Positions 23,996-59,099 of a stretch of 64,000 nt of DNA are shown here, in pieces; position 1 is the first letter of the stretch; every line of letters starts with the position of its first letter. The notes below the pieces were generated by a model. The model searched no databases. It had not been told where the DNA came from and saw only the letters and a list, made by a program, of their open reading frames with translations. Both the position numbers and the translations under genes were made by a program. This DNA comes from Botryllus schlosseri (Eukaryota), in NCBI GenBank assembly GCA_051294905.1, contig CM119385.1, positions 11,036,001-11,100,000 of the forward strand. Direction: 5' to 3'.

Positions 23996-24025
23996 TAGTT
24001 GATGCTCACTGTTATCTTCAAAACC

Positions 24026-24520: not shown

Positions 24521-24619
24521 AAGCTCGATCGCAGTTACTATTTGTTATATTTACATCATGGGTTCCGTGCGAATAAACGGTTGTAAGTTTATTGGATCCA
24601 AGGCCGTATCATGGATAGT

Positions 24620-24814
24620 GTGAAGTAGTTGTCTACCCAGAGCTTTTGCTCCTTTGGAAATCAAGGGTACCACACTACGTCCCAAACTGCGAAATAGATT
24701 ACCTAGACCGTGACCTCTTTGCACTCGACCTCGAAAGTAGTTTATGTCCCCTCCGCTTTGATTTCGATAATAGTGTTGAAAAGCTTCACGATCACAACAG
24801 TAATGTGCTCTCAT
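24620..24814 (-). pseudogene. 3'-truncated copy of the cement/pX-like gene running into the TIR
   Basis: Identical to the 36686 ORF up to LGRQLLHT, then reads antisense TIR sequence. Confidence 0.8.
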
Positions 24815-25541: not shown

Positions 25542-26159
25542 AACGCAATAGCACGCTTTCGAAATTGCAGTACAGCACTAGACGGTGCACTCCGAAAAGG
25601 AATTTTTTCACCCTTATCATTCAACAAAGATATTTTTATACGTTCCAATCTATTTATATTTATAGGGAAAAAGAAAGGCTTTATGTAGTATTTGGAAAAC
25701 GCCTTCTTATCTCCCTCGACTTTCACCACTCGCAATAGGCGCTGTAATGTACCATTGGATTCTTGCGGTTCAATAATATCGCAATGAACGTATACAAAGT
25801 CAATCGACGGTAAGGGTGTTATATCGAAATTGAAATGTATTTTTTTCTTTGAGAAAGAATATGCGGATAGCGCTGCTGTATTTGGTAACACGAAAGTCGC
25901 GAGAGTGTAGGCATCTGGAATTTCTATATTCTTCAACGTTGCTGTATAATCGTTCTCTGCAGTCACGATATTGCATTGCGTATCCACTCCTGGATAAAAG
26001 ATATCTGTGATGTCTTCGTGTGGAATTGACACAGTTAGGGTATTGCTCTCAGGAAAACATTTTACTGCTACATCGGGGTTGATACTTTCTATGGTTTTTA
26101 ACATGGCGTAGAGCGAGTCATATTGTCCAATTTTCAGGCGGAATCGTCTAAAGCTTTGT
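25538..26159 (-). pseudogene. 5'-truncated copy of penton-1
   Basis: Matches the 35158-35979 protein from QSFRRFRLK onward; lacks the first ~66 codons. The upstream 'N-terminus' in the ORF track is an alternative frame of ORF182. Confidence 0.8.
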
Positions 26160-26696
26160 CTGAGAATTGTTTGGCATCCATTTTTGATTGCCGTATTGCG
26201 TATTGCTATTTGGAAAGGTACCATTAGCATTGCCAGCATTCCGGAATCTTGCATTGGTATTCGACATGCCACCATTCCCAGCAAAGTTGCCATAACCATT
26301 TGGAAATCCCGCTTTTGCGCGATCCATAGGTTGTATTTGACCATTCGGCGCAATGTAACGCGATGTTTCTTGTAAAATCCACCCCAGCGGTGAATTTTCT
26401 ACGTCATCAACGACGTTCGACGGAGAATATAATATATATTCATCAGCGAGATTGATTTGCTGAAAGTATTCGATACCTTCTCGAGTGTAACACGCAACGA
26501 GCTTCCCATCATGAGTTAAACTTGCTTTGAATCTTTGTATTGCACCATTCGTTGGAAACACACGTACTTGTCGAGCATCGATCAGCTGATCGTCTGCAGT
26601 TTCGATTCGAAGCTTCGATATGTTATTGAAAATGTAAATGTCCTTCCGAAGAGCTCCTTCTGGGAGTTGCGACTCGGCTCTAATTGCTATAGACAT
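26148..26696 (-). CDS. Orphan Maverick protein (182 aa) with Gly/Asn-rich tail; C-terminus clipped by the duplication junction
   Basis: ATG-initiated ORF; its last codons ACA AAG CTT TAG lie inside the duplicated penton sequence. Confidence 0.65.
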   Translation of the reverse strand: MSIAIRAESQLPEGALRKDIYIFNNISKLRIETADDQLIDARQVRVFPTNGAIQRFKASLTHDGKLVACYTREGIEYFQQINLADEYILYSPSNVVDDVENSPLGWILQETSRYIAPNGQIQPMDRAKAGFPNGYGNFAGNGGMSNTNARFRNAGNANGTFPNSNTQYGNQKWMPNNSQTKL

Positions 26697-26806
26697 GATT
26701 CGATCTAAACAATGTCTCTTGAATAGAACTGAAATTATGGAGTAGCTACTGTGGTTTTTATAGACCTCGGCGTGTTCTTTTCTCTGATTTTTTTTTTTTT
26801 AAACTT

Positions 26807-27050
26807 AAATTTAAAATGATTGAATATCTCACACGTTGCGTCGCTGTTTTGCAACTGTCACAGATTCAAATTCAACGCAGCAGCTGTTATTTTTCAAATT
26901 TAAAATGATTATCTCGAACGTTGCGCAACTGTTTCACAACTGCCGCAGATTCAAATTCAACGCCGCAGCTGTTGTTTTTAAATTTAATATATCTCGGACG
27001 TTGCGCAACTGTCACTGGCACAGTTTCAAATTCATAGCCGCAGCTAGTTT
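26807..27050 (+). repeat. Three tandem ~85-bp units in the Maverick intergenic region
   Basis: Units start at 26807, 26896 and 26980 (AAATTTAA...ATCTC..ACGTTGCG...CAGATTCAAATTCAACGC.GCAGCTGTT). Confidence 0.85.
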
Positions 27051-27190
27051 GATAGGTGCATGCGTGTTATTGTGATCGCATACTAGGTGAGGGACCCACG
27101 TGAACACTTATTCATTGGAACTTAAACGCCTTAACCACTCAGCCAACTCAGTATATATTCACGATGTTTAGCCTCAGCTATGCGACCACT

Positions 27191-27398
27191 ATTTAGAGAT
27201 AGCAGTCATTTGCGTTTTTGATATTATAGAGTATTACGATCGAATCGCTACGAGTAACGCACTGTCTAACTCATTGGGGAATTGATTTTTCAACGCGATA
27301 TTTAGAGCTAGCAATGCTAAGTTCCACTAAGTCCGAACAGCTGCGTTTTGTTATTGTTGAGTATCGCGCAGTTGTCAATAGGGAATAGATTTTCAATG
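27191..27398 (+). repeat. Two degenerate ~109-bp tandem units
   Basis: ATTTAGAG.TAGCA...TGCGTTTT...GAGTAT...GGGAAT.GATTTT at 27191 and 27300. Confidence 0.6.
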
Positions 27399-27453
27399 GT
27401 TTAGATACGCTCAGTAGATACGCCGTTTAGACTTTAGTTATTGAGTATTGAGA

Positions 27454-27594
27454 ATGAATACTGAACAAGCCGTAAATGACGAGATGGAACAAGTCGCAGT
27501 AGATAACGAAAGTAGTACGACTCAAGTTGACGTGATTGACATCACCGGCGATGATTGCAGTAAAGCTAAATCAACCAGCGAAGATTTTGAATAA
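27454..27594 (+). CDS. 46-aa acidic micropeptide with a SUMO-interacting motif
   Basis: MNTEQAVNDEMEQVAVDNESSTTQVDVIDITGDDCSKAKSTSEDFE*; below the ORF-track cut-off. Confidence 0.55.
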   Translation: MNTEQAVNDEMEQVAVDNESSTTQVDVIDITGDDCSKAKSTSEDFE

Positions 27595-27622
27595 CAATCC
27601 TTAACTTTTTGTTATAATTCAA

Positions 27623-27860
27623 CGATTGCGTATTGCAGCATGTATAGTATTGATTACTTCATATGCATAGTTGATTACTTTAGTTATTACGAGAGCGTCA
27701 TTGCTTAGTTACAGTACCGCTGAGATATGATTGCGTCCAGTCCAATAACACCGAGAAATACGTTATTACGATTGTGTAGTTGAAGCATGTTCATGATTAC
27801 GTCATATGCGTAGTTGATTACTTTAGTAACGCTGAGATATGATTACTGCGTTGATTGCCT
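27623..27860 (+). promoter_or_regulatory. Internal copy of TIR promoter modules upstream of ORF217/pPolB
   Basis: Shares GATTGCGTATTGCAGCATGT, AGTAACGCTGAGATAT, AGTTGATTAC and CATGATTACGTCA blocks with 23840-23995. Confidence 0.65.
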
Positions 27861-27917
27861 TTGCAGTTGAAGCAAGTGCAAGGCAATATATAACGTGTAA
27901 TATTTAGTACATGACAT

Positions 27918-28571
27918 ATGTTTTTGAGTAGTGATATAGCAAGCTATGTATTGAGTACTTTTGAAAAGTTAAATGCCGACAAATCTATTTGCATGTTTCC
28001 GAATTGTGCTATTGTTTTCATTAATAATGCTGCTCTCCTAGAGACTATTATGACACGTACAGCTGTGAACTGTGATTATGGCTTGATTAAGCCTGCCTCT
28101 TTCTGGATGTTTTGTAAAAATGGCTCTGAGATCATTAATTCAATCTTTTATTGTTTGCAGCTCAGTATGGATAACTTTATTGACATAAGTGACTTGTTAG
28201 ATATGAACGCACCTCATCAAAGTGTAACGATGCAGGCTCCGAGAAAAGACATGAACAAGATATATCAGAGTCAAAATGAAAGCCGAAAGCGCTCGCGTCA
28301 AGACACTATGTCTTTGATCGAAGGTCTAGTTGACGACGATTTGAAGATGGAAGCTATGTGGAATCGACTTGTTTCGATGGAAGTATTTGACCAAGACTAC
28401 TCGAAAAATTTTCTAAACATAATTAAAAACACCATGAAAGACATTGAAAAACTATCTAGTGACTCGAATGCTTGCATTGTTGAGATTCAGCGTCTTGAAA
28501 AAATTAAGTTTGTGTTTCTATACGGTGTGATTAAATGTAAACTGCGCTTGAAATATGGATTCAATTTCTAA
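27918..28571 (+). CDS. Orphan Maverick protein, 217 aa
   Basis: ATG ORF overlapping the pPolB start; basic patch SRKRSR and helical C-terminal part; no family recognised. Confidence 0.7.
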   Translation: MFLSSDIASYVLSTFEKLNADKSICMFPNCAIVFINNAALLETIMTRTAVNCDYGLIKPASFWMFCKNGSEIINSIFYCLQLSMDNFIDISDLLDMNAPHQSVTMQAPRKDMNKIYQSQNESRKRSRQDTMSLIEGLVDDDLKMEAMWNRLVSMEVFDQDYSKNFLNIIKNTMKDIEKLSSDSNACIVEIQRLEKIKFVFLYGVIKCKLRLKYGFNF

Positions 28572-31500
28572 TATATGTACTGACTATTGTCTTGGTATTT
28601 TTCAGATACTAGTATCTATGGCGCGACGCAGGCGATATGGAGATCGTGGATTTCTGGTCGACGAAACGCTGGGTTTCGAACAAGACGGCATAGAGGTGAT
28701 TGAAAGACACTACGATTCCATCATCGATTCGACATGGACTTCAAGAAACAACTTACGAGAAATCATCAACATTCGAATGGTCGGAAGAGGTCCGCTCGAA
28801 ATTCACGCGCGTATTGCAGACATTTACCCCAGAAGATATCGTCAGTTCAAGATGAATTTCGCGTATGGGTACTTATTATTCAACCGTGACACATCCAGAT
28901 ATAGTTATTATCATCCTCAGAGTTCTCAAGCGGTTTTTACTGTCCCTAAAACTATCATATCACGCGAAGATTTCGATTCCGTCACGAATGAGATCGATTT
29001 GACGGCAGGTTTTGAATATGCCAATCGAGTGCGACCAGATACGAAATTCTACTGTGCTGATGTGTTGCATATTTCCATTTACATTTATGAGATGGATAGA
29101 GCTTTACTTGGTGGAAGTACTATCATTTCCCCGGAGATGCAAGCATTAAGCAAATGTAACTATATCATGACTTTCCTGCGTAACCAAAAAGGCAAAGCAT
29201 ATGAGGATTCTTTGTGTATTTTCCGCTGCGTTTCATATAGCATGAAAAAAAAGCGTAATGAAACACATGTTCGGCAATTGGCCGCGCAATTCACAGCCCG
29301 TTACGATATCTCGACTGAGAACGGAGTAGCTTTTGAAGACTTATCAAAAGTTGAGGATTGTTTTCAAGTTCAAATACTGCTTTATGAAAAACGTAATCAA
29401 GGCACAGTCATGCTGCGTAATTCTCATGCTAATGGAATGACTATACCTATTCACATGCAAGATCATCACTGTTGCCTGATTAGGGACCTGACATTGTACA
29501 CGTCTACCTATATGTGTGACAAGTGTAAATTTTTCTTTACTAGAAAAGATAATTTGATAGAGCATATGAAAAGCATTGATTGTGAGCGTCCTCAAAAACA
29601 GCGACACGGTTTCGGTATTTATCGCCCTAAGATGACTGTGTTTGAGCGAATGGCCGAACAAGGAATTTTGGTTAGCTCTGAAAAACGATATTACCCCTTC
29701 CGAATCGCTTATGATTTCGAGAGTTTACTAGAAAAAGAAAATCTTCGAGCTGACACACCGAAAGTTGAAATTGTCAACAAGCATGTTGCGGTATCGGTAT
29801 CTCTCTCAGATAATGTTACGAATGAAACGCATACACTCATTTCCAACGGTGATCCCAACGTTTTAATCAACGATATGGTGGCAAAACTATATGAAATTCA
29901 AAACGTCGCATCTTCGCATATGCGGCAGTTATTTGAAGAAGAATTGAAAGATTTTCGCATGTTAATAGAGCATCGCAATGCAATTGAACCAGGCAAAACT
30001 CGCTATTTAGATCGCTTGTATCGTCACTTCGAAATTTGGTTGGATCAAATACCTGTGATTGGATTCAACTCGGCTCGTTACGACTTGAATCTTTGTAAAA
30101 AATATTTGATTCCTATACTGCAAGAAGAAAGTGGATTTTTTGTTTTGAAACGAAACAGCGCATATCTGACCATCAGTACCAACCGATTGAAATTCCTTGA
30201 TATTTCACTGTTTCTGTCACCGGGTTATAGTTTGGACGCGTACTTGAAAATTTATGGAAATGGGGTGGACAAAAAATTCTATTTTCCATACGAGTACATG
30301 ACTTGTATTGATAAATTGAATGACACGCAATTACCTCCACACGAGATGTTCTATAGCAGTCATCGAGGCACTAATATCACCGCGGCGCAATACCAAGAAT
30401 GCGTAGATATGTGGAATCGTCTGCAAATGAAAACCATGCGAGACTTTCTAACTTTTTATAACGAAAGTGACGTGATTGGCTTTCTGGTTGCGTTAGGTAA
30501 TAACGCTGCCTTTTATCAAAAGTTGGGTATTGACATGTTCAAATCTGCTATCAGTTTACCAAGCATAGCCAATCGACTCATGTTTGCAGAATGTTATGAC
30601 ATCGCGCTGTTCAGTAAAGCGAATGCTGATCTCCATCAAACTGTAGTGAGCAATCTATTCGGTGGTCTGTCACAAATATCGACACGATTTGCAATGAAAG
30701 ACGAAACGAAAATTCGTGAAATACAGTACGGCGACGCAGCGAAATACGTGAAAAAGATAATCGGATATGACGCAAATTCGCTCTACCTCGCATCCATCGA
30801 TCAATGCATGCCGTGTGGATTTCCAATCAGGTGGTTGTATGACGAAACCAAACAAAAATTTCACAGAAAGCCAATTTACCCTGCGATGGCAGAACTCGAA
30901 TGGCTTACTTATGAAAGTTATCAGCGCGATATTTCAATTCAACACGCCTGGAACGGCAAGCAAGCTAAACTTGGCTCGCGTCAAATTTCGGTTGATGGCT
31001 TTTCGCTTGAATATCAATTGATATTCCAATATCATGGATGTTTTTTTCATTGTTGTGATCGGTGCTATAAGGACGACGCAAACATTGAGCGACGTATTAA
31101 AACAGAAGAAATCACTGCCTATCTCGAAGAGTTGGGATACACGATAATATCAATACGCGAATGTGAATGGAATCGCATGAAACTCAACCCTGACATTGCG
31201 CAGTTTGTTTCGTCACTACAAAGAAATGTAACAAAAGAATATTATCTCACTGCGAATCAACTATTAGATCGCGTATTTCATCAACAGTTCTTTGGGGCAT
31301 TGGAAGTCGATGCGTACTGCCCCGATGAATTAAAAGCAAAATATGCAGAATTTCCGCCATTTTGTAAACATATCTCGGTGGATTTATGCGATGTCGGCGA
31401 ACATATGCGCGAATATGCCCGTCAAAACAATGTGAAATTTCCAAAGAAGTTTTTGGGCTCTAGTTATTTCACTGAGAAACAACTAATTACAAGTGATTTG

Positions 31501-32484
31501 TTGGGTTGGTACATGGATCACGGTATGATTATTACACGCATATATCAAGCCGTGGAATACGAAGCCAAACGACCATTTCAAAAGTTTGTAAATTCTGTCG
31601 TAACGCAAAGGCGAAAGGGTGATGTAACCCCTAAAGACCCAGCACGTGAAATGGAGGCCTTGACCTTCAAATTATGTGGAAATTCCGCGTTTGGGTCCAC
31701 TATACAGAACCCAATGAAGTACAGAAACCATACCTATGTAAAAGGTGATGAGTTGAAATCACACATTCAGAAAAAAAACTTTATTGACGCCGATGAACTT
31801 TCTGAAGATCTGATCGAGGTTAGCTCGTTACCAGATTCAATTGACGTCGATCAACCGATCATTGTAGGTCTATTCATCTTTAACTCCAGTAAATTACGCA
31901 TGCTTTCGTTTCTGTATGACTTTTTACATGAGTATTTAGAGGAATGCGACTTCAGTTATTTGGAGGGAGATACTGATAGCCAATATCTGAGTTTATCAGC
32001 TGATTCAATCTACTCCCTAATTAAACCTTCGCGAAGGAAAGAATTTTTTCAAGTTCATGATGAATGGCTCATACAGAGAGCTTGCGCGCTGCATCGAGCA
32101 GACTTTGAGCGTGATCCGATCGCTTTCAAAACCACCGAACCGTGCTGTGTCGCTGCTTACAATTATGCTAAACGAATTCCTGGTCTGTTCAAAGTAGAAT
32201 GGGAGGGTCATGGGTTTATTGGATTGAACTCGAAAACGTATTACTGCAAGGGTGAGACTGATAAATATTCATCCAAAGGTTTGAGTAAATCCGCCTCTAA
32301 GACCTTCAAGGATTTTGAAGGCGTGTTGCAAAACCGTTCCACTTGCGGCGGGATTAATTCTGGGTTTCGCTGTTTTAATGGTAATATTTTTACTTATAAG
32401 CAATATCGTTCTGCTTTGTCGTATGGTTACTATAAAAGAGTTGTTTTGCCGGATGGCATACATACTGTACCGCTTTCATTGTAA
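28555..32484 (+). CDS. Protein-primed family B DNA polymerase (pPolB), 1309 aa
   Basis: Exo I AYDFES, Exo II GFNSARYD, Exo III YNESDV; motif A GYDANSLY, motif B KLCGNSAFG, motif C GDTDS; Zn finger CDKC..H and a Vsr-like insertion VDG...QYHGCFFHC. Confidence 0.97.
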   Translation: MDSISNICTDYCLGIFQILVSMARRRRYGDRGFLVDETLGFEQDGIEVIERHYDSIIDSTWTSRNNLREIINIRMVGRGPLEIHARIADIYPRRYRQFKMNFAYGYLLFNRDTSRYSYYHPQSSQAVFTVPKTIISREDFDSVTNEIDLTAGFEYANRVRPDTKFYCADVLHISIYIYEMDRALLGGSTIISPEMQALSKCNYIMTFLRNQKGKAYEDSLCIFRCVSYSMKKKRNETHVRQLAAQFTARYDISTENGVAFEDLSKVEDCFQVQILLYEKRNQGTVMLRNSHANGMTIPIHMQDHHCCLIRDLTLYTSTYMCDKCKFFFTRKDNLIEHMKSIDCERPQKQRHGFGIYRPKMTVFERMAEQGILVSSEKRYYPFRIAYDFESLLEKENLRADTPKVEIVNKHVAVSVSLSDNVTNETHTLISNGDPNVLINDMVAKLYEIQNVASSHMRQLFEEELKDFRMLIEHRNAIEPGKTRYLDRLYRHFEIWLDQIPVIGFNSARYDLNLCKKYLIPILQEESGFFVLKRNSAYLTISTNRLKFLDISLFLSPGYSLDAYLKIYGNGVDKKFYFPYEYMTCIDKLNDTQLPPHEMFYSSHRGTNITAAQYQECVDMWNRLQMKTMRDFLTFYNESDVIGFLVALGNNAAFYQKLGIDMFKSAISLPSIANRLMFAECYDIALFSKANADLHQTVVSNLFGGLSQISTRFAMKDETKIREIQYGDAAKYVKKIIGYDANSLYLASIDQCMPCGFPIRWLYDETKQKFHRKPIYPAMAELEWLTYESYQRDISIQHAWNGKQAKLGSRQISVDGFSLEYQLIFQYHGCFFHCCDRCYKDDANIERRIKTEEITAYLEELGYTIISIRECEWNRMKLNPDIAQFVSSLQRNVTKEYYLTANQLLDRVFHQQFFGALEVDAYCPDELKAKYAEFPPFCKHISVDLCDVGEHMREYARQNNVKFPKKFLGSSYFTEKQLITSDLLGWYMDHGMIITRIYQAVEYEAKRPFQKFVNSVVTQRRKGDVTPKDPAREMEALTFKLCGNSAFGSTIQNPMKYRNHTYVKGDELKSHIQKKNFIDADELSEDLIEVSSLPDSIDVDQPIIVGLFIFNSSKLRMLSFLYDFLHEYLEECDFSYLEGDTDSQYLSLSADSIYSLIKPSRRKEFFQVHDEWLIQRACALHRADFERDPIAFKTTEPCCVAAYNYAKRIPGLFKVEWEGHGFIGLNSKTYYCKGETDKYSSKGLSKSASKTFKDFEGVLQNRSTCGGINSGFRCFNGNIFTYKQYRSALSYGYYKRVVLPDGIHTVPLSL

Positions 32485-32488
32485 TAAA

Positions 32489-33109
32489 ATGAACCGTGCA
32501 CGTGTTTTATACTCGCCTCTTCGTATGATAATTAGTGGAGCATCGTCCAGTGGAAAAACAGTTTTCGCCTATAGAATCATACAAAATGCCGACAAGCTCA
32601 TCGTACCTCGACCGAGAAAGATCATCTGGTTATATAATAACTATCAACCGTTGTATGATAAGATGAAAGGAGTGTCATTTTACAAGGGTCTAGACAAGTT
32701 GAAAGATTTACAGAGAGCTAATAGTGAACATACGTTAATTGTGCTAGATGACATGATGACGCAAGCAAGTCAAGTGCGTGAACTGTTCACCAGATATAGT
32801 CATCACATGTCGCTCTCAGTGGTGTTTCTCTGTCAAAATCTATTTCACCGTGGAGCAGGCTTCCGTGACATTACGCTGTCTAGCAACTATATTGTCATCA
32901 TGAAAAATCCTCGTGATTCCGCCCAGATTCGATATCTTTCACGTCAAATGTTTCCAGATAAACCAAATTTTCTCACGGAAGCCTACAAGAGAGCAACTCG
33001 TAAGCCTTATAGTTATATCATGGTTGATTTGACGCAGGAAACACCCGAACAGTATCGACTTCGCAGCAACATTTTTCCAAGCGAACGTATGACCGTGTAT
33101 TTGGAATAA
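32489..33109 (+). CDS. A32/FtsK-like DNA packaging ATPase, 206 aa (start MNRARV)
   Basis: Walker A GASSSGKT, Walker B LIVLDD, FLCQNLF motif. Confidence 0.93.
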   Translation: MNRARVLYSPLRMIISGASSSGKTVFAYRIIQNADKLIVPRPRKIIWLYNNYQPLYDKMKGVSFYKGLDKLKDLQRANSEHTLIVLDDMMTQASQVRELFTRYSHHMSLSVVFLCQNLFHRGAGFRDITLSSNYIVIMKNPRDSAQIRYLSRQMFPDKPNFLTEAYKRATRKPYSYIMVDLTQETPEQYRLRSNIFPSERMTVYLE

Positions 33110-33144
33110 ATAGCGCTGTACTCGAACATCCACTATCATTCGCA

Positions 33145-33549
33145 ATGGCGAGGTCACGCGGTGTTTTGAAAAAAACTTTAAATAATCATCTTATCAAGTT
33201 GAAGCTGCTAAAGAGTGCTAAAAAGAAGGAACGTAACGAGTTATTAACTCACAAAGCTTTTACTAGCTGTGTGTGTGAGTGTCTTCGTAACCTTGTCTCG
33301 GGCAATATAGCTATTTCAAGTACGAGTAAGGCACGATTGAAGAAGCATAAAACTAACATTCGCAAAGTGTTGTGCTGTAAATCTCAAAAACAGAAGCAAA
33401 AAACATTACAACAGGGTGGCTTTTTATCAGGTGAATATACATGCGATTCGATTCGATTCATGATCTAACTTTAATGATTGATAGCGATCTTAAGTGCTGC
33501 AATTCCGATTATTGGAAGTCTGTTGGGCGGATTGACTAGACATGCGTGA
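33145..33549 (+). CDS. Basic core protein (pVII/PW-like), spliced: exons 33145-33430 and 33485-33549, 116 aa
   Basis: CECLRNLVSGN and QQGG|F adenain-type site; removing the GT-AG intron restores the amphipathic end QQGGFLSAILSAAIPIIGSLLGGLTRHA. Confidence 0.8.
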
Positions 33550-34003
33550 ATTGTACTTCCCGTCTTTACAATCAAAAGACGCCTACGAAAAGAAATTCAA
33601 TGAACATATCGCAAGCATCAGGGACTCTGATTTGACACGCACCGAAAAATTAGCACTATTTCAACACGGCATTAGACTATTGAGAAATCTACGTGCAAAT
33701 AAGAAATTGATCAAGTCGTCGTCCCGCGCACCCGCAGCGCCCGCTACCGATGAAACAATTGCCGCGTCGCATCCGCCCGGAGCGGCGCCCGCTATTAATA
33801 ACACATTTGACGCGACACCTCCGCCCGCAACACCCGAGATTTGGAACAATTACGAAGCGGTAACTCCACCCCATACACCTAAAACTTCAAAGAAAAAAGT
33901 TAAAAAGAAGAAAGCCAATAAACCTCCAGTTAATTGGCAAAGCATTGACGGTCCGCGCAAACGAAAGCCGAATCAACGCTACACAGGAAAGTTATGGACA
34001 TGA
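33542..34003 (+). CDS. Maverick virion/core-type protein, Pro/Ala-rich middle and Lys-rich tail, 153 aa
   Basis: ATG overlaps the spliced upstream stop; helical IRDSDLTRTEKLALFQ segment is like the conserved small ORF found before Maverick integrases. Confidence 0.7.
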   Translation: MRELYFPSLQSKDAYEKKFNEHIASIRDSDLTRTEKLALFQHGIRLLRNLRANKKLIKSSSRAPAAPATDETIAASHPPGAAPAINNTFDATPPPATPEIWNNYEAVTPPHTPKTSKKKVKKKKANKPPVNWQSIDGPRKRKPNQRYTGKLWT

Positions 34004-35001
34004 CGCAAGACTATTTCGATCCCCGCAAACCAAACTCCTATAGAGGAGCTTATTTACAGAAAGACAAAGAATGGTTGAAATCAGAACAAAGTTATACCCT
34101 GCATTTTCCTATACGAAAAAAATTTACTCGCGAGAAGGTGGTAGTCTCTGGAATTGATAGTCAGTTTCAGAGCGATTTGATTGATGTGCAGTCTATTTCT
34201 AAATACAATCGTGGATTTAGATATCTGGCTTTGGTTATTGATACGTTTTCAAAGTTTGTGTGGTTGATTCCAATTAAAGATAAAACTGGTCGCAGTATGA
34301 TTTCTGCTTTCCGACAAGTGTTCAATGAGAGGCTGCCTTTAGTGTTGCAGACTGATAGAGGTACAGAATATACCAATCGAGCTTTTCAAAACTTTCTCAA
34401 GAAAAATAAAGTTCGTTACTTTTACACAAAAAGCGAATTGAAGTCGTCTCTCGCCGAGCGCTGTATTAGGACTTTCAAGGCAATCTTGTACCGCTATTTC
34501 ACAAAGAATAACACCAGTAAATACATCGACGTGCTACAGGATTTCGTATATTCCTATAATCACACCAAACATACGTCGTTAGGTATGGCTCCTAGTCAAG
34601 TCAATTCACACAATCAAGAAGCTATTTGGCAAAAAATGTACGGGTTTCGACAAGCTACACTTCCCACACTGACGAAAGGGACAGCCGTACGCATTTCGAA
34701 AATTCGCGGGCTTTTTGAAAAGAGCAGTAGACCCAATTGGACAACTGAGATATTTTATATCATCGACGCAATGGCTGGTGACCCTCCGATGTATCACCTG
34801 CGTGACTATAATCATGATGTCATCGATGGGAGGTTTTACAGAGAAGAACTACAGGTAGTGACCGAACCTACAGAGTGGCGTGTTGAAAAGATTATAAAGA
34901 GACGTCAACGCGGCAAACACCGTCAGTATTTAGTGAAATGGGTAGGATATGGATCAGAATTCAATTCCTGGGTCGATCAAAAAGATATCGTCAAACCGTA
35001 A
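33994..35001 (+). CDS. Retroviral-type (rve) DDE integrase with C-terminal chromodomain, 335 aa
   Basis: QSDLID, QTDRGTEY and AERCIRT catalytic motifs; chromodomain WRVEKII...YLVKWVGY...NSWV. Confidence 0.95.
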   Translation: MDMTQDYFDPRKPNSYRGAYLQKDKEWLKSEQSYTLHFPIRKKFTREKVVVSGIDSQFQSDLIDVQSISKYNRGFRYLALVIDTFSKFVWLIPIKDKTGRSMISAFRQVFNERLPLVLQTDRGTEYTNRAFQNFLKKNKVRYFYTKSELKSSLAERCIRTFKAILYRYFTKNNTSKYIDVLQDFVYSYNHTKHTSLGMAPSQVNSHNQEAIWQKMYGFRQATLPTLTKGTAVRISKIRGLFEKSSRPNWTTEIFYIIDAMAGDPPMYHLRDYNHDVIDGRFYREELQVVTEPTEWRVEKIIKRRQRGKHRQYLVKWVGYGSEFNSWVDQKDIVKP

Positions 35002-35161
35002 CTTTTATCAATTCATCGCTCAAGTCGTGGTTATATTGATCATAGTGATTTTTTCACTCTACAATTTAACAATCGTTCAAGAAAACAAGGAGCTTTGGGT
35101 ATCGTTATTATCGTCGTGTGTGGGTTATATGTTACCAGCTCCAAAAATACCTAAACTATGA
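34949..35161 (+). CDS. Small two-TM membrane protein
   Basis: FIAQVVVILIIVIFSLYNL and LWVSLLSSCVGYMLPAP; TATGA overlap with the penton-1 start; typical Maverick small hydrophobic ORF. Confidence 0.7.
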   Translation: MDQNSIPGSIKKISSNRNFYQFIAQVVVILIIVIFSLYNLTIVQENKELWVSLLSSCVGYMLPAPKIPKL

Positions 35162-35979
35162 GTTATGTGACGTTATTTTCCAATGCTTCTATGGACATGT
35201 TTCCTGGCAATACAACCGCAGAATATGTCAACGAAATGCAGACGGCTAGAAATGTAGAGAGAAATGAAGTCGCTCTGACGGAGATCAGTTTTCCAAGAGA
35301 TTTTGAAAAACGTATCGAGTCACAAGCTTCTTTCGGATTCCAAATTACGGGTATCGAACAAAGCTTTAGACGATTCCGGTTGAAAACAGGACAATATGAC
35401 TCGCTCTACGCCATGTTAAAAACCTTGGAAAGTATCAACCCTGATGTAGCAGTAAAATGTTTTCCTGAGAGCAATACCCTAACTGTGTCAATTCCACACG
35501 AAGACATCGCAGATATTTTATATCCAGGAGTGGATACGCAATGCAATATCGTGACTGCAGAGAACGATTATACAGCAACGTTGAAGAATATAGAAATTCC
35601 AGATGCCTATACTCTCGCGACTTTTGTGCTACCAAATACAGCAGCGCTATCCGCATATTCTTTCTCAAAGAAAAAAATACATTTCAATTTCGATATAACA
35701 CCCTTACCGTCGATTGACTTTGTATACGTTCATTGCGATATTATTGAACCGCAAGAATCCAATGGTACATTACAGCGCCTATTGCGAGTGGTGAAAGTCG
35801 AGGGAGATAAGAAGGCGTTTTCCAAATACTACATAAAGCCTTTCTTTTTCCCTGTAAATATAAATAGATTGGAGCGTATAAAAATATCTTTGTTGAATGA
35901 TAAGGCTGAAAAAATTCCTTTTCGGAGTGCACCGTCTAGTGCTGTATTGCAATTTCGAAAGCGTGCTATTGCGTTATGA
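35158..35979 (+). CDS. Minor capsid protein (penton) 1, 273 aa
   Basis: N-terminal YVTLFSNASMDMFPGNT and C-terminal VYVHCDIIEPQ...LLRVV...IKISLLNDK...VLQFRK match the Maverick penton pattern. Confidence 0.9.
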   Translation: MSYVTLFSNASMDMFPGNTTAEYVNEMQTARNVERNEVALTEISFPRDFEKRIESQASFGFQITGIEQSFRRFRLKTGQYDSLYAMLKTLESINPDVAVKCFPESNTLTVSIPHEDIADILYPGVDTQCNIVTAENDYTATLKNIEIPDAYTLATFVLPNTAALSAYSFSKKKIHFNFDITPLPSIDFVYVHCDIIEPQESNGTLQRLLRVVKVEGDKKAFSKYYIKPFFFPVNINRLERIKISLLNDKAEKIPFRSAPSSAVLQFRKRAIAL

Positions 35980-36708
35980 AATACATTCACATTAGCAGTT
36001 CGGAATCGGATTTTGTACTTGACTTGGCACGTCCCATCACCGGAAAATGGGAGTTGGGGCTTGCAGAATTTTCAGTTCGTAATCAGTTTCAAGCAACTTT
36101 ACCTCATTTCAATGGATTGTTATGGGAATTTCAAGAGGAAAAATCATCTGCTCTGTTGGCAGCGCAAAGCAATAATTATTTTTTCTATCCAAATGGGGAT
36201 TATTATGATTTCAAAAGCTTGATCGATAGAATCAATCGTAGTCAGACAAAGGTATGGATAAATCAGTTGTCAAGCTCCACGGCTATGCTAGTCATACCCC
36301 CTAGCGAAGCAGGTGCCTTTCCGAATTTCCGAAGAAATCCAAAGAGAATCAGAAACCCGGTTTTCGTATATGGGAATCTTAAACAACAACATTTACCGCA
36401 AGGAAAATATTTAACTTCGCAAATGTTCCTGCGAGATGGCATCGAGCCTATTAGTAATTTATTGGTCTATACCGATCTCATTCGACCGCAAACAGTCGGC
36501 GATACGAATGCACCGCTATTGCGAAATATCCCTATCACAGCAACATCACATTTTTGAGAAAATCTACTTTTTCCCTATGATTGCGGAATATGCCAATCGA
36601 ATTCGAATTAGTATTAGAGACGATAAAGGAGAATCTATAAATCTGAATGGTTCTGTAGTTCATATCACACTTGCTTTACGTCACGATGAGAGCACATTAC
36701 TGTTGTGA
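35976..36708 (+). pseudogene. Penton-like protein 2, frameshifted by a 17-bp deletion at 36542/36543
   Basis: ORF stops at 36557; the C-terminus continues in another frame to 36708. The inverted copy keeps GCTAACAATGAATACCA (24958-24974). Confidence 0.88.
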
Positions 36709-37054
36709 TCGTGAAGCTTTTCAACACTATTATCGAAATCAAAGCGGAGGGGACATAAACTACTTTCGAGGTCGAGTGCAAAGAGGTCACGGTCTAGGTA
36801 ATCTATTTCGCAGTTTGGGACGTAGTGTGGTACCCTTGATTTCCAAAGGAGCAAAAGCTCTGGGTAGACAACTACTTCACACCGGGGCTGAAGTCGCTTC
36901 TGACGTATTGGGAGGACAAAACATTGGAGAAAGCTTTAAAATCAGAGGAAAGCAAGCTGCTAGTCAAGCACTTGATAATTTCCTAGGGAAGAGAAAAGCA
37001 CCTAAAAAGAAAAATACCAAACGGAAAAAACGTCGCCGGGATATTTTTGATTAA
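36686..37054 (+). CDS. Cement/pX-pVI-like virion protein (start MRAHYCC)
   Basis: QSGG and QRGHGLG Gly motifs, amphipathic GLGNLFRSLGRSVVPLISKG helix, basic tail; lies just before hexon. Confidence 0.8.
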   Translation: MRAHYCCDREAFQHYYRNQSGGDINYFRGRVQRGHGLGNLFRSLGRSVVPLISKGAKALGRQLLHTGAEVASDVLGGQNIGESFKIRGKQAASQALDNFLGKRKAPKKKNTKRKKRRRDIFD

Positions 37055-37104
37055 ATACAAATAGCAAGCCTTCCTCTTTTCATTTACAAGTAGACCCGCG
37101 GAAC

Positions 37105-38382
37105 ATGACGGAGCTGATTCATAGCAAATCTGCTGAAGGTATTCATCCGTCTTTAGACCTTTTCCAGATACCACCTACTCAGACGAGTGTAGAGAAAAAA
37201 CGTATCATCAAGATACCCCCTGTTTCGGACAATGAATCCGTCATAACTTTCAGATACGAGGGGTGTGGAGATTTCATAGATCTAAGCGAATCTTATTTTT
37301 TATTTCGTTTGAAACTGTTGAAAGGCGATGCGGATTTAGTCGCAAATGATGATATTGGCGTTGTCAATAACATTTTAGATTCAATGATTTCACAACTTCA
37401 CATTAAAGTTGGAAATCACACGATCAAGCAGGATATAAAACTACAGGCGTATTCAGCCTACTTGAACTATCTGTTCGCCCCACAAGACGTACAAAAGTCA
37501 ACGCTTTTGACACAGGGTTGGGTCAAAGATACCCCTGAGCAATTAGATGATAAGGCTATAGGCGATGCTGCAGCTAACAAAGGTCACAACGCGAGAAGTT
37601 TGCCTTTTGCAATCAGTAAAGTTGTTGAAATTAGAGGCCGAATACATCACGGATTATGCTTACAAGACCGTTACATTCTGGACGAGGTACCCTTGGAGTT
37701 CGAACTCACTTTGAACCCGAAAAGTTTCTTTCTGTTTGGAGTGAATACTAGCAATTTCAAAATTATTAAAAAAGAGCTGCAATTGTGTGGTGTGAAAGTA
37801 AGCGAAGATGTGAAATCCGCTATGATGGTCGATGCTCCAGCTAGATATCCGTTTATGGACATGAAGCTTCTGACAAGAACTTTCGCAGCTAACACCACTC
37901 AAATCGATATTGGTAATCTGTATTCGGGTACTCTACCGACTCGTTTAATCATCGGTATGGTAGCGACTAAGGCATTCCAGGGTGCGTTCGATAAAAATCC
38001 ATACAATTTTATTCATAACAAAATGAAGCGTGTCGAATTGAAAGTCAATGGTTTCCTGATACCGGAAGGTGGATACGAACTTGATTTTGAAAACAATCAC
38101 TATTCTGAAGCCTATCTCAATATGGTTCAAGGCATAGGAGCTCTCGAAAAACAGATCGGAGTTCTCACCCCGAAGGAATTCGCTAATGGATATACTCTTC
38201 TAGTATATAACTTGCGAGCTGATGATTTAGACGACTGTTTCGAACTGCAGAAAAGCGGTACCCTTAGTCTGCGCATCACTTTTCCTGCTGATGGTGTCGC
38301 GAGCGAAACAACTCTGCTTTGTTTCATGGAATTTCAAAAAATACTGGAAATAAGCCAAGCTCGCACCGTTACTGTAATATGA
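37105..38382 (+). CDS. Major capsid protein (hexon, double jelly-roll), 425 aa
   Basis: SLDLFQIPPTQTSVE N-terminus, GTLPTRLIIGMV...AFQG..KNPYNF, and C-terminal GTLSLRITF...MEFQKILEI match the Maverick MCP pattern. Confidence 0.95.
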   Translation: MTELIHSKSAEGIHPSLDLFQIPPTQTSVEKKRIIKIPPVSDNESVITFRYEGCGDFIDLSESYFLFRLKLLKGDADLVANDDIGVVNNILDSMISQLHIKVGNHTIKQDIKLQAYSAYLNYLFAPQDVQKSTLLTQGWVKDTPEQLDDKAIGDAAANKGHNARSLPFAISKVVEIRGRIHHGLCLQDRYILDEVPLEFELTLNPKSFFLFGVNTSNFKIIKKELQLCGVKVSEDVKSAMMVDAPARYPFMDMKLLTRTFAANTTQIDIGNLYSGTLPTRLIIGMVATKAFQGAFDKNPYNFIHNKMKRVELKVNGFLIPEGGYELDFENNHYSEAYLNMVQGIGALEKQIGVLTPKEFANGYTLLVYNLRADDLDDCFELQKSGTLSLRITFPADGVASETTLLCFMEFQKILEISQARTVTVI

Positions 38383-38831
38383 ACGGACTAGAAATAGATG
38401 AAATATTGTATAGTTACGATTCCACCAAACGACATTATCTAGGAAATTTTCCTATTGATCGACTTCCTCGGCGACCGAAAGCTCCCTACTCATTAATCAT
38501 TAATTATGACGAGGCCGACGAACCAGGAAGTCACTGGGTATGCATCTACGCTGATGAATATGGAACTCATTATCATGACAGCTTCGGCATAACTCCGTTC
38601 AGAAACGAAATACCCTGTTTCTTAGAACCTGAAAAGTATACAAGTTCGATCAAACCATTACAGCACAAACGTTCAGAGGCTTGCGGAGCGCACGCAATTT
38701 CATTCCTAAGCTGCCGCAGTGATGGTATGAGCACGCTGTCTTATTTAGACCACTTCGGAAAAGATAAGAAACACAACGATAGTATAGTCTGGGACTTTGT
38801 TCAAAGATTGAAACGAAATGCGAGCAAATAG
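38379..38831 (+). CDS. Adenain-like cysteine maturation protease (start MNGLEI), 150 aa
   Basis: Catalytic H (GSHW), D (YHDSFG), Q (LQH) and C (SEACG); ATATGA overlap with the hexon stop. Confidence 0.93.
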   Translation: MNGLEIDEILYSYDSTKRHYLGNFPIDRLPRRPKAPYSLIINYDEADEPGSHWVCIYADEYGTHYHDSFGITPFRNEIPCFLEPEKYTSSIKPLQHKRSEACGAHAISFLSCRSDGMSTLSYLDHFGKDKKHNDSIVWDFVQRLKRNASK

Positions 38832-39135
38832 CTTCACTGTCATACAGTACTTTGGAGATGAGAAGATTCGACTGAAAATCAGAGAAAAAATCATTGTAAT
38901 GAATCCTGAACGCATTCACAGACTTTCATCTGATAGCTTTCATATACGTATTTATCCGCATGACCGAGATATTACATTATTCATTGGAACTGATTGGTTG
39001 CCTGTACGCTTTCCTAATCATTGTATGTACATAGACGTGTTATCGAAACATAGAATTGCTCAACAAATCAGTGAAGAATTTGTTGTTTTTCGTAGACTAA
39101 AAATCTGGGAATCTCTGACTAGATCGCGTATATAA
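38818..39135 (+). CDS. Orphan accessory protein, 105 aa
   Basis: ATG overlaps the protease end; beta-rich; no family recognised. Confidence 0.6.
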   Translation: MRANSFTVIQYFGDEKIRLKIREKIIVMNPERIHRLSSDSFHIRIYPHDRDITLFIGTDWLPVRFPNHCMYIDVLSKHRIAQQISEEFVVFRRLKIWESLTRSRI

Positions 39136-39252
39136 ATGGAAGATGCCGATGATATCTTAGCTGTCGTGTTCATCGTACTGCTTACTATTTGTTGTATACT
39201 GGAATGGGTATCATGTTGCTGTCAAGAACGTGAGCAAGCTAGTGAAGCATGA
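39136..39252 (+). CDS. 38-aa single-TM, Cys-rich micropeptide
   Basis: MEDADDILAVVFIVLLTICCILEWVSCCCQEREQASEA*; abuts the upstream stop (TAA-ATG) and overlaps the next start (ATGA). Confidence 0.6.
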   Translation: MEDADDILAVVFIVLLTICCILEWVSCCCQEREQASEA

Positions 39253-39566
39253 CCATGGCAAGAATTTCTGTTGCTACTCAGTTTGAGTCGAGTCGTAATT
39301 ATGAGGAAATGATTGTATTGCCCAACGTGAGATCAATTACCATTCCCTACACGTGTATACTTTTCCATTATGATAATAGAATTGTAGTGAAACCAATTGA
39401 AGATTGTGTTACATACCCATCGCGTAATATCATTGTCTGTAAAGACGAATATTATCGTGTGCTTTATAAATCGTGCTTGGTCATTGATTTCAAGGGCAAG
39501 GCGATTGTTGTTGGTAATATAATCCTATTCCAAGCGTTTTGTGATGGTCGTTTCATAACTCAATAA
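39249..39566 (+). CDS. Orphan accessory protein, 105 aa
   Basis: ATGA-coupled; stop lies within AATAAA, the likely end of the rightward transcription unit. Confidence 0.6.
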   Translation: MTMARISVATQFESSRNYEEMIVLPNVRSITIPYTCILFHYDNRIVVKPIEDCVTYPSRNIIVCKDEYYRVLYKSCLVIDFKGKAIVVGNIILFQAFCDGRFITQ

Positions 39567-39617
39567 ATCACTGACTCGTGTTCGGTTGTGTTTATCCATT
39601 AGGTAGTAGCAAAATGC

Positions 39618-39689
39618 AGATTCGTCCGGGATTTGAACCCGGGACCTCTCGCTCCCAAAGCGAGCATCATACCCCTAGACCAACGAATC
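39618..39689 (-). tRNA. tRNA-Pro(UGG), Maverick-encoded
   Basis: 72 nt: GATTCGT/ACGAATC acceptor stem, CTCGC-TTTGGGA-GCGAG anticodon arm, CCGGG-TTCAAAT-CCCGG T arm; A and B boxes intact; TTTT terminator 3 nt downstream. Confidence 0.93.
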
Positions 39690-39865
39690 AGCGCACAATG
39701 CAAGCTGCATCAGACCAGTGCAACTTCGTCAATAAATCACTAACTCGCGCTATTTTTCATATAACCAACACATTATGGAGTTTTTATTACAAAGATTGCG
39801 ATCCACAATCAATATTTACAAGGCATAAACAAGTCACAAGCAAATGATAGTTTTAATCATTGTAA

Positions 39866-40336
39866 TCACGCTGACAAATCGCAGTCGACTCTGGCATAGC
39901 GTTCGGTATATTGCTGAGCGCGTTTAAAGTAGAGTTGTCTATCTTCCAGATAGAGATGTGCACTTTCCGCATTCATAGGATCGTTTGGATTTGGTGCGCC
40001 AAGTAACGAAGATATTGATAGCAGCACAGTTGATGTAGTTAGCGCTGGTGACCATTGCTTCTGCAAAATATCCACGCATATAGTGCCTTTCACACTAATG
40101 TTCGGGTGAAATATATGAGTTTCAAATCTCATCTTCGGAGGTCGAAACGGATACTCTGTGGGATATTCTATTAATATTTTAAACACTCCTTTTTCGTATG
40201 GTGTTCCCTGGGGTCCTTCAATTGTTGCCCACCAACTAAATAGATTCGATTCGTCAATCGGTCCCGCTTTGATAGTAGAATCAGAACAATTCCGAAACTT
40301 TTCTCGCTCGAAACACAGTCTTTTCAAAGCACACAT
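39866..40336 (-). CDS. Ubiquitin-conjugating enzyme E2 (UBE2D/Ubc4-like), 156 aa from MCALKRL
   Basis: EGPQGTPYEKGVF, EYPFRPPK, HPNI...ICVDIL (catalytic Cys), WSPAL; intronless; ATTAAA/AATAAA downstream. Confidence 0.95.
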   Translation of the reverse strand: MCALKRLCFEREKFRNCSDSTIKAGPIDESNLFSWWATIEGPQGTPYEKGVFKILIEYPTEYPFRPPKMRFETHIFHPNISVKGTICVDILQKQWSPALTTSTVLLSISSLLGAPNPNDPMNAESAHLYLEDRQLYFKRAQQYTERYARVDCDLSA

Positions 40337-40405
40337 TCTGAGTGACAATCAAATTGAAATGATTGCGCCACCTTTGCGTCATTAGCACTTCAACGGAAAA
40401 AAGAG

Positions 40406-40477
40406 TGGAGAATACGGGAATTGAACCCGTGACCTTCTGCTTGCAAGACAGCTGCTCTACCGCTGAGCTAAATCCCC
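40406..40477 (-). tRNA. tRNA-Ala(UGC), Maverick-encoded
   Basis: 72 nt GGGGATTTAGCTCAGCGGTAGAGC...CTTGCAA...GGGTTCAATTCCCGTATTCTCCA; G3:U70 pair; A and B boxes; T6 terminator at 40397-40402. Confidence 0.88.
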
Positions 40478-40500
40478 AAGCGATAGTGACGGCTTAAATG

Positions 40501-40800
40501 TTAGTTTTGAGCAGTAGCATTAGCAAATTTATGAGATAGTTCTACTGTAGCTGTTGACTTGAAAACAACTCGATGTTCTTCTTTCGTTACTTCAGTATCG
40601 TATATCTTCATAGTTTTTCTTTCGTCTTGATCACATGGTACCAGCTCTGTATAATTACATCCTTCACATTCTACTATAGTGAAAGGATACGATATTTCCA
40701 TTACATCCACACCAACCATCTTCATACATTTCGAATATACTATCCATGATACGGCCTTGGATCCAATAAACTTACAACCGTTTATTCGCACGGAACCCAT
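40501..40800 (-). CDS. Orphan accessory protein, 99 aa (start MGSVRING), straddling the right TIR boundary
   Basis: TATAAAA ~40 bp upstream; the first 21 codons lie in the TIR, and the left copy stops at the junction (24559-24623). Confidence 0.65.
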   Translation of the reverse strand: MGSVRINGCKFIGSKAVSWIVYSKCMKMVGVDVMEISYPFTIVECEGCNYTELVPCDQDERKTMKIYDTEVTKEEHRVVFKSTATVELSHKFANATAQN

Positions 40801-41672
40801 GATGTAAATATAACAAATAGTAACTGCGATCGAGCTTTTATAAGTGATACCACGTGACAAAATGCCTCCATCCACCATTTTGTTCTATCCACTTTCGTTT
40901 TTTAGTAGCAATGTAATTCCCGAGTGTCTGTATGATAGCATCTATATCCCTGCCGTTATGCGCAGCCTCGTTATTGCGAGCAAGAATGCCGCCAAGCACA
41001 TAAAGAGACACAATCCGACCCCAATTTTCTTGACTATCTTTGAATATTTCATCGGCTATCATCAGGAACATTCGCTCAATGGGTGAATGTTCTTTATATT
41101 TCTCATTGACTTCACTATAACGAAGGCGCTTGGAGACTGCGTTTAGGATAGTTCGATATCGCTCAAATATTTCAGTAACAACTCGTCGTAAGGTTTTCTC
41201 CACCTGTGTATTTGCTTTAACGCTTGAGCCGTCGATTTCATACATGATAAAATTTCTAGCTAAGGAATATGCCGTGGATATAATTTCATCCTTTTCTTCA
41301 GTGAGCGCAGGTGATACTCGCAATAATTCCATGGTTTTGAAGATAACAGTGAGCATCAACTACGCTTGTGACGTAATCATGAATATGGTGCAATACGCAA
41401 TCATAGGTAATCAACTTACGCAATGACGTATAATGACGTAATCATTATACACATGCTGCAATACGCAATTATAGGTAATCAACTTACGCAATGACGTAAT
41501 AAATATCTCAGCGTTACTGGACTGGAACTATGCCATCTCTCACACAACCAAAACCTCTCTCGTATTGGAACCACACCCACTTCGTTCTGCATTCTGATTG
41601 GCTAACAGATGTCACGTGATCAAATACTCGACGCTGATTGGGGCGCGCCTCGTTACCGTGTATAATACTACT
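40739..41672 (-). repeat. Right terminal inverted repeat (934 bp)
   Basis: Reverse complement of 23686-24619; ends ...AATACTACT followed by the TSD GCCTTA. Confidence 0.95.
40838..41332 (-). CDS. Bcl-2 family protein, right TIR copy
   Basis: Translation identical to the left copy (NWGR, GGW). Confidence 0.9.
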   Translation of the reverse strand: MELLRVSPALTEEKDEIISTAYSLARNFIMYEIDGSSVKANTQVEKTLRRVVTEIFERYRTILNAVSKRLRYSEVNEKYKEHSPIERMFLMIADEIFKDSQENWGRIVSLYVLGGILARNNEAAHNGRDIDAIIQTLGNYIATKKRKWIEQNGGWRHFVTWYHL

Positions 41673-43070
41673 GCCTTATAATATGGGGAAGAGTGCCAGG
41701 CCATGATATTCTATAAAACCGGGTGTTCGAGTGAACACAGGTTTAGTATCGCATTTTCATATCAATACTGTCATTTACATCCCATGATGTGGACGACTGC
41801 TTATTCTGTCAAAAATTGACATCTCCTGGGATGCATCAATATGAATCAAGCTCTCTACACCTTCCGCATAGTGCCATTTGCTGCTTTTGACAGTCCATGC
41901 GAACGAATTACGATCGTTTCCACGACTACTTACTTACTTGAGTAGATTTAAAGTCATTAAATTCTACTTCTACTTCAAGTAGTTTTAGGTTGCTTATGGA
42001 AGAAGTATTTCTACTCGTACTTGAGAATATTTTTTCGTCGCTACTTCTACTTCTACTTGAGTAGCTTTCTTGACTACTTTGACCACCTCTGGGAGGGTGT
42101 CAGTCGAAAAGACCGCAACTGCGCGTCGTTCGGCATCCTCCTATCTGTTCATTTCATCGCATTGTGTCTTATCGCATTGTTCAGAGCTCAAAGATTATTG
42201 ATATATGATTATTGATAAAACCATATAGTGTCCTGTATTGCGTGGACACAAGCAAATCTCACGGCTCAGTGAAATCGGACTACGTCACACTTTTCATTTG
42301 ACTAAAGGCAATTTGACGGTATTTTTGAGATATAATGCTCAATCGGTTGCGCAATGCGCAACAATGGCCAATACACTTGCGGTTTGCTCCGCTACTCAAC
42401 TGATCCCAGACGGCATCGATGTCAGGTATTTTTGTGGTGTATTGAACTGATAAAAATTGCTAATATATCGAACCGAAAATAATTTCAATGCAGGAGTCAA
42501 GTAGAAGCAATATAGGCCTATATCATTGGTAGAAGAGCACACGAATCATAATGTTTCGCCCGGAACCGGTACTCAGTATCAGTTTATAAATATTTTCACC
42601 AGTTCAAAACACCGCAGAAACTGCGATACAATGAAATGATAGGAAGGTGCCGAAACGACTTGGAGTAGTCTTTGACAGACACCCACCTTATTGGCCTAGG
42701 CGAAGTAGAAAAGAGGCATGCACTGCACACTGAATGAAAAGTAAAGAAGAAAGTCGAGTCCATATCCAATCCTGTAATCACACCACACTAACTTATCGTC
42801 CTGCACATTGATTTTGTACATCGCCATTGCCTAATTATTTTGGCCTAATGACCAACTTTTGAGGGTGACGACTTCTGCGTAAGATGCGCCTGGACTGGAT
42901 TGCTCGGCTTTGACCTTTGGTGACTATGTTAAATAGAGTTTTCCGTCCCGTGACCCGTATATACCGTGCTTATCTGTATTTTACATTTCACCGAATTGTA
43001 TTTTTGTTATGTATGTTATTGATTTCCCCGATTGACAAATAAGGATTATCTCTTCCTCTCTCTCTACATC

Positions 43071-59050: not shown

Positions 59051-59099
59051 TAATGTAAAAATGAAGCCAATGAAGCAAGGAAGTAAGTCCAGATTAGTA

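Follow-up and report, generated by a model that had tools for sequence, protein, structure and literature searches.

An 18-kb Maverick/Polinton element in the genome of Botryllus schlosseri carries an intact ORF for an E2 ubiquitin-conjugating enzyme of the UBE2D type, and the lineage of this protein has been under purifying selection. We analyzed a stretch of 64 kb (hereafter the window) in which the element lies. On the features of the sequence described below, we consider it fairly probable that the E2 is a working accessory gene with a predicted function in the control of the host. An intact and selected E2 in an 18-kb Polinton would extend a host-control strategy known from ASFV and giant viruses to elements in which coding space is scarce. 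Further, a small soluble E2 can be assayed directly and could help to reveal how animal Polintons affect the cells of their hosts, a subject on which little is known.

Translation of the minus strand of the E2 locus gave a single uninterrupted frame of 156 codons with a terminal stop, whereas the reading frame of the plus strand was closed. Pfam UQ_con matched residues 8-143 (164 bits, cut-off 27; E = 1.9e-48). The closest solved structures were those of UBE2D1/2/3 and Ubc4 (E about 1e-45), and the best 60 of 312 PDB matches were all UBE2D/Ubc4-type enzymes or their fusions. H77-P78-N79, C87, D89 and D119 of the ORF aligned with H75-P76-N77, C85, D87 and D117 of UBE2D, and the spacing of the active site was HPN-x7-Cys87. 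The AlphaFold2 model, computed from an alignment of 14 sequences, had a mean pLDDT of 88. When this model was compared with viral structures using Foldseek, the E2 of ASFV ranked first (TM 0.86, 33% identity) and the top three E2s had TM values of 0.85-0.86; the named E2s among the best 50 matches were those of ASFV, giant viruses and an entomopoxvirus. We conclude that the ORF has the intact UBC fold and the catalytic set of the UBE2D type and is predicted to encode an enzyme. A previous reading of the sequence alone had described an intronless gene with a full UBC fold, HPN and catalytic Cys, all of which is borne out. It had also described the N-terminus as diverged. Helix 1 is indeed changed, with an aromatic residue at position 9, but the segment is simply helix 1, in which K5, R6 and E10 are retained.

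Table 1. Positions in the window of the element, its genes and the signals around the E2 ORF.
Feature	Position	Strand	Remarks
Maverick/Polinton element	23686..41672		17,987 bp; AGTAGT...ACTACT ends
Left target-site duplication	23680..23685		GCCTTA
Right target-site duplication	41673..41678		GCCTTA
Left TIR	23686..24619	+	934 bp, identical to right TIR
Right TIR	40739..41672	-	934 bp
Bcl-2 family ORF	24002..24520	+	172 aa; inside left TIR; Pfam E = 1.1e-20
Bcl-2 family ORF	40838..41356	-	172 aa; inside right TIR; identical copy
B-family DNA polymerase ORF	28555..32484	+	1309 aa, no internal stop; exonuclease and polymerase motifs (as we take them to be) only
A32-type packaging ATPase	32378..33109	+	Pox_A32, E = 1.1e-9 (Pfam)
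rve integrase	33994..35001	+	with C-terminal chromodomain (Pfam)
Major capsid protein	37105..38382	+	425 aa; 30% identical to Patella proteins annotated as such
Adenain-like cysteine protease	38379..38831	+	match to ASFV S273R, E = 0.0026
Two 105-aa ORFs	38818-39135, 39249-39566	+	between protease and tRNA-E2 block; no family
tRNA-Pro(UGG) gene	39618..39689	-	followed by T4 run; downstream of E2; Rfam 61 bits
AATAAA poly(A) signal	39783..39788	-	78 nt after E2 stop; no poly(A) tract; read from sequence
ATTAAA	39852-39857		after E2 stop
E2 ubiquitin-conjugating enzyme ORF	39866..40336	-	156 aa; HPN 77-79, catalytic Cys87; translation, Pfam, fold model, alignment
TGACGCAA motif	40374..40381	-	starts 45 nt before E2 start codon; instance of TGACGYAA
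tRNA-Ala(UGC) gene	40405..40477	-	followed by T6 run; 68 nt upstream of E2; Rfam 67 bits (cut-off 29)
TGACGYAA/TTACGTCA motif sites	23859-23989, 24817, 27804, 30768, 32757, 34001, 36683, 40381		

From its sequence, the element that carries the E2 is a young Maverick/Polinton of a lineage under selection. It has long TIRs, a 6-bp TSD and AGT-repeat termini, and encodes PolB, an rve integrase, a packaging ATPase, a protease and a capsid protein (Table 1). Its TIRs, TSD, AGT-repeat ends and size range match those of vertebrate Mavericks as given in the available sections of PMC8097293. Pfam returned no polymerase match for the polymerase ORF; from the motifs, which we take to be those of an exonuclease and a B-family polymerase, we infer that the enzyme is of the protein-primed type. 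The capsid ORF was 70% identical to an unnamed protein. The ORFs at 35158-36708 had no match of note in Pfam, PHROGs or NCBIfam and are candidates for minor capsid proteins by position only. IMG/VR scans with the capsid protein and the polymerase found no relative.

An internal inverted duplication (24618-26159 versus 35358-36882), with 39 mismatches over an alignment of 1525 nt, lies immediately next to the left TIR. Its 385 codons differ at 21 synonymous and 12 non-synonymous positions (dN/dS about 0.16). The duplication suggests that the two arms of the element were originally long mirror images of each other and that the left one later lost its middle. Within the duplicated block, one right-arm ORF (35976-36708, plus strand) is split over two frames, and two left-arm ORFs (24551-24814 and 25538-26344, both minus strand) are truncated or begin at another start codon; preservation of the probable minor-capsid genes thus differs between the arms. 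The 1.2 kb at 26700-27900, between divergent genes, contain no ATG-started ORF of at least 60 aa but an imperfect tandem repeat of 80 nt (26821-26985), and this segment is likely a control region. Beside the core genes, the accessory ORFs of 105-217 aa, namely the two 105-aa ORFs of Table 1 and those at 40501-40878 (minus strand), 26148-26696 (minus strand) and 27918-28571 (plus strand), had no family match of note. The 125-aa ORF at 40501-40878 overlaps the edge of the TIR and has a CxxC motif.

The E2 is bracketed by the only two tRNA genes of the window, and all three genes are on the same strand. The tRNA calls rest on ARAGORN and Rfam, and Rfam found nothing in the flanks of the element. 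The free folding of tRNA-Ala was not better than that of shuffled sequences (z = -1.4). Both tRNAs have U34 anticodons, and CCA and GCA are common in the genes of the element, although Pro and Ala each have a more frequent codon there. One full Bcl-2 gene resides in each TIR, so that the element has two identical copies. Neither the tRNA genes nor the Bcl-2 genes had been mentioned in the sequence-only reading.

To examine selection on the protein, we mapped 339 other E2 domains onto the ORF, which gave 145 columns with an occupancy of at least 70%. Among the 49 columns with at least 95% conservation, the ORF departed from the commonest residue at only two, and both changes were conservative (Phe to Tyr58 and Leu to Met121). 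The departures rose to 7 of 17 columns at 85-95% conservation, 30 of 44 at 60-85% and 29 of 35 below 60%. Further, comparisons with four close relatives gave 3-8 differences in the 49 near-invariant columns and 18-24 in the 35 variable ones. Because changes are few at conserved columns and many at variable ones, the protein lineage has been under purifying selection, which, as seen from a single copy, may have acted before or after the capture. Neutral decay, which together with near-identity to a host mRNA had been named earlier as refuting a virus-encoded E2, was thus not seen.

We examined the origin of the gene by protein searches and phylogenetic analysis. A search with the single sequence retrieved two relatives of more than 60% identity, and a profile built from the ORF and these two retrieved further ones, including two proteins of Styela clava annotated as 'ubiquitin-conjugating enzyme E2 D2-like' (XP_039266252.1 and XP_039266775; 60% identity). 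The final tree had 72 rows and 147 columns. Its rows were obtained from 280 E2 domain hits that were thinned at 78% identity to 88, from which 43 long-branched or redundant rows were removed and to which 27 new rows were added. Its backbone was largely unresolved, but the ORF fell inside a divergent branch of 15 rows (support 99/90), a group that was named after a quick tree had been viewed. Canonical animal UBE2Ds, a Styela 'D4-like' paralogue and the E2s of viral contigs were all outside this branch. The Styela clava proteins are its only named members; 13 of the 15, the E2 of the window among them, are without a name.

The ORF was only 49% identical to UBE2D3. A tree constrained to place the ORF by itself among the canonical animal UBE2Ds (vertebrate, mollusc and flatworm) was rejected (p-AU = 0.002). 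In contrast, the whole 15-member branch as sister to animal UBE2D was not rejected (p-AU = 0.275). Thus, the gene is related to UBE2D and belongs, by its sequence, to a divergent branch; it is not a recent copy of a canonical UBE2D. The proposal of a captured UBE2D-like gene, for which a phylogeny of E2s had been suggested, therefore stands as regards the type of enzyme, but not as capture of a canonical UBE2D. A derivation from the 'D4-like' paralogue of Styela was considered and dropped; the paralogue falls elsewhere in both careful trees. Although the ORF has no introns, we found no poly(A) tract as a mark of a retrocopy within 126 nt after the stop codon. An old retro-capture could have lost its tract, or the donor E2 family may already be intronless.

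The ORF may, however, be a mere passenger, that is, a member of an expanded and perhaps intronless host E2 family that was picked up recently, in which case the selection would predate the capture and the gene would have no function in the element. The named members of the branch, the Styela clava proteins, do look cellular. However, no relative of more than 64% identity was returned by the protein searches. The CpG content of the E2 (observed/expected 1.19) is like that of the element (1.23) and unlike that of the flanks (1.0 and 0.85); the codon use of the E2 also fits the core genes of the element (z = -0.2), a fit that does not discriminate element from host. Further, a motif of the type found across the element lies directly upstream of the E2 and a poly(A) signal downstream. 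We consider the passenger explanation unlikely.

The upstream motif, TGACGCAA, which we take to be a bZIP (CRE/ATF-like) site, is an instance of TGACGYAA. There were 13 occurrences of TGACGYAA in the element and three in 46 kb of flanks; after repeats were merged, those in the element represented nine distinct sites, compared with about 1.3 expected. The chance of finding TGACGYAA in the 68-nt gap between tRNA-Ala and the E2 was about 0.005 for a motif chosen after inspection of the sequence. TGACGYAA/TTACGTCA motifs are clustered in the TIRs and before several genes of the element, at about ten times the density of the flanks, and are a candidate for a promoter element shared within the Polinton. 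When sequencing runs were searched with the stretch 36900-41400 (capsid to Bcl-2), at least half of its words were present in 12 runs from seven studies under two organism labels, and among the matches listed, no holder was recorded as RNA; four matches with a small share of the words were set aside. The 12 runs speak for the element family, not for the E2 itself.

Another account of the branch would turn the relation between host and element around. The whole branch could be a long-lived, Polinton-borne E2 lineage of ascidians. Polintons and their satellites would have spread its members, among them the multi-copy genes of Styela, and the E2 would pair with IAP-type RING ligases of sister elements and form, together with Bcl-2, a ubiquitin module against cell death that is split between elements. 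Hints at this are the two accessions of Styela with nearly identical proteins, the damaged-looking members P0286 and P0287, and branch members called as whole ORFs on contigs of 5.7-16 kb. We regard it as a tentative idea with a small probability. If it were true, the 'host' E2 genes of Styela would themselves have been spread by Polintons. The E2 D2-like proteins of Styela clava share all five scored hallmark positions with the ORF but are not its sister in the tree, and may be host genes or themselves element-borne. In the branch members P0286, P0287 and P0002, some residues close to the active site that are invariant elsewhere have been replaced, which would fit decaying copies of a multi-copy family.

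We next return to the E2 as a working accessory gene and to its predicted function. The ORF resembles the class I enzymes UBE2D1/2/3 (UbcH5a/b/c) and yeast Ubc4 in length, HPN-x7-Cys, E3-binding loops and gateway Asp. It differs from them in a one-residue insertion after the AGP motif, in its separate branch in the tree and in five substitutions (K8F, S22K, K101T, D112A and L119M in UBE2D numbering). It keeps Arg6, Tyr62-Pro63-Phe64 and Ser96-Pro97-Ala98 (Arg5, Pro61-Phe62 and Ser94-Pro95-Ala96 of UBE2D), which we take to be the contact surfaces of UBE2D with RING ligases. In the crossover helix, Lys101 and Asp112 of UBE2D, presumably ubiquitin-contact positions, are replaced with Thr103 and Ala114, which could weaken RING-stimulated transfer. 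An aromatic residue in place of Lys8 of UBE2D, as in Phe9 of the ORF, was found in 12 of the 15 branch members; the other branch-wide changes, apart from the backside site, are L86V, L119M and the replacement of Asp112 with a small residue (UBE2D numbering).

At the backside position, Ser22 of UBE2D is replaced with Lys23. Lys or Arg occupies this position in 11 of the 15 branch members, whereas it is Ser or Thr in 309 of the 339 other E2s. According to the available passages of PMC9954413, S22R in UbcH5B abolishes backside binding of ubiquitin and, with one ligase, reduces the rate of chain formation about fourfold; a basic Arg or Lys is present at the equivalent position of UbcH7 and Ubc13. 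Lys23 is therefore predicted to cause the loss of non-covalent ubiquitin binding, with slower chain formation or mono- or priming ubiquitination. Taken together, the changes in the branch and the S22R data point to an active E2 with a shifted E3 preference and low processivity, which would rely on the E1 and E3s of the host, probably with an altered choice of E3 and low processivity of chain formation. A basic backside site and an aromatic helix 1 define an uncharacterized branch related to UBE2D, which is of interest whether it is viral or cellular.

We propose that an ancestor of the element acquired the gene from the divergent UBE2D-related branch, and that the host at that time was probably an ascidian. 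The E2 would be transcribed by RNA polymerase II of the host from the bZIP-type site, like those before other genes of the element, and host E1 would charge Cys87 with ubiquitin. The E2 would then dock on RING or HECT ligases of the host (or of a sister element) via the kept loops and Arg6, while the changed helix 1 probably shifts which E3s it serves and Lys23 would limit it to slow chain building or to mono- or priming ubiquitination. Since the element also carries Bcl-2 genes, the control of cell death or innate signaling is the likeliest use of the E2. The two proteins may dampen these responses during replication of the element.

The same residues could instead be read as those of a decoy that accepts ubiquitin and docks on RING ligases of the host but passes the ubiquitin on inefficiently, and so ties up E3s, E1 or ubiquitin instead of redirecting transfer. 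Such a role would fit the retention of the E3-binding loops together with the changes at the backside site and at two positions of the crossover helix. However, Asn79, Asp89, Asp119, Leu106 and Ser110 (Asn77, Asp87, Asp117, Leu104 and Ser108 of UBE2D) are all kept. Further, the same changes occur throughout the branch, including the Styela proteins, and are thus not special to the element. We consider a decoy distinctly improbable.

Finally, the acquisition of the gene from a member of the Nucleocytoviricota that shared the host cell is very improbable: E2 genes are common in giant-virus contigs, and a first tree with fewer relatives had placed the ORF in a three-member clade and in a 20-row group with gene-dense metagenomic E2s, but this neighborhood was gone once closer relatives were added, grouping with the nearest gene-dense metagenomic set was rejected (p-AU = 0.010), none of 101 E2-bearing loci showed more than one of five hallmarks (chosen from the branch itself), and the identity to viral or metagenomic loci, where at least 97 residues were aligned, did not exceed 52% among sampled viral sequences, a set without giant viruses of ascidians.

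In agreement with the sequence-only reading, we recognized no E3 in the element. Pfam gave no match to a RING, U-box or HECT family in 22 ORFs of the element, a six-frame scan gave no RING or paired-CxxC pattern, and PHROGs and NCBIfam searches of its proteins gave no E3. For the ORF at 39249-39566, an Atlas search gave no usable match, and a model computed from its sequence alone was too poor for use (pLDDT 40). The small ORFs of the element may hide an unconventional E3 or an adaptor. cIAP pairs with UbcH5, and as a lead, IAP-type RING ligases are the leading candidates for the E3 partner.

Several parts of this arrangement have precedents. Bcl2 and IAP are known as cargo of adintoviruses (available text of PMC8502044), and BIR and Bcl-2 motifs occur in the Burro retrotransposons of planarians (excerpts of PMC6431247). 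Polinton-like viruses with E3 ligases (61 viruses in PMC7805220; also PMC6459981) and with tRNAs (PMC12220804) have been described, and the accessible portions of these three papers make no mention of an E2 alongside. The searchable text of the supplement of PMC8502044, outside its picture-only maps, contains no ubiquitin or E2 term. We did not find an E2 in a Maverick/Polinton described in the open literature, taken without subscription papers, Repbase and bioRxiv supplements. Further, none of 106 loci from E2-seeded scans matched any of seven proteins of the element at E = 1e-3, queries with which distant Polintons would be missed. E2 cargo is familiar from giant viruses; as far as we found, it has not been described for animal Polintons.

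I215L (UBCv1) of ASFV and the E2s of giant viruses are virus-encoded E2s, like the ORF of the Polinton. In contrast to the ORF, the ASFV E2 has 213 aa, and the two have no shared origin. ASFV and giant viruses have genomes of hundreds of kb, whereas the E2 described here lies in an integrating element of 18 kb. The ASFV E2 binds Cullin 4B, eIF4E and RPS23 (PMC7771050) and degrades STAT2 in a manner dependent on the catalytic Cys (PMC9880986), as reported in the sections available of both papers; thus, a viral E2 can act via host partners. The proposal that the Polinton E2 redirects ubiquitination rests on analogy with I215L.

Outside the element, the window contains an animal-type exon of a TM7S3/TM198-like gene (6385-6678, minus strand; Pfam E = 5.7e-10) and weak fragments of hAT transposases (19710-19964 and 50024-50362). 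A large inverted array of short tandem units, each about 9-11 nt long, was observed at 58616-62186; its arms are separated by 2-3 kb, and it resembles the ends of foldback elements.
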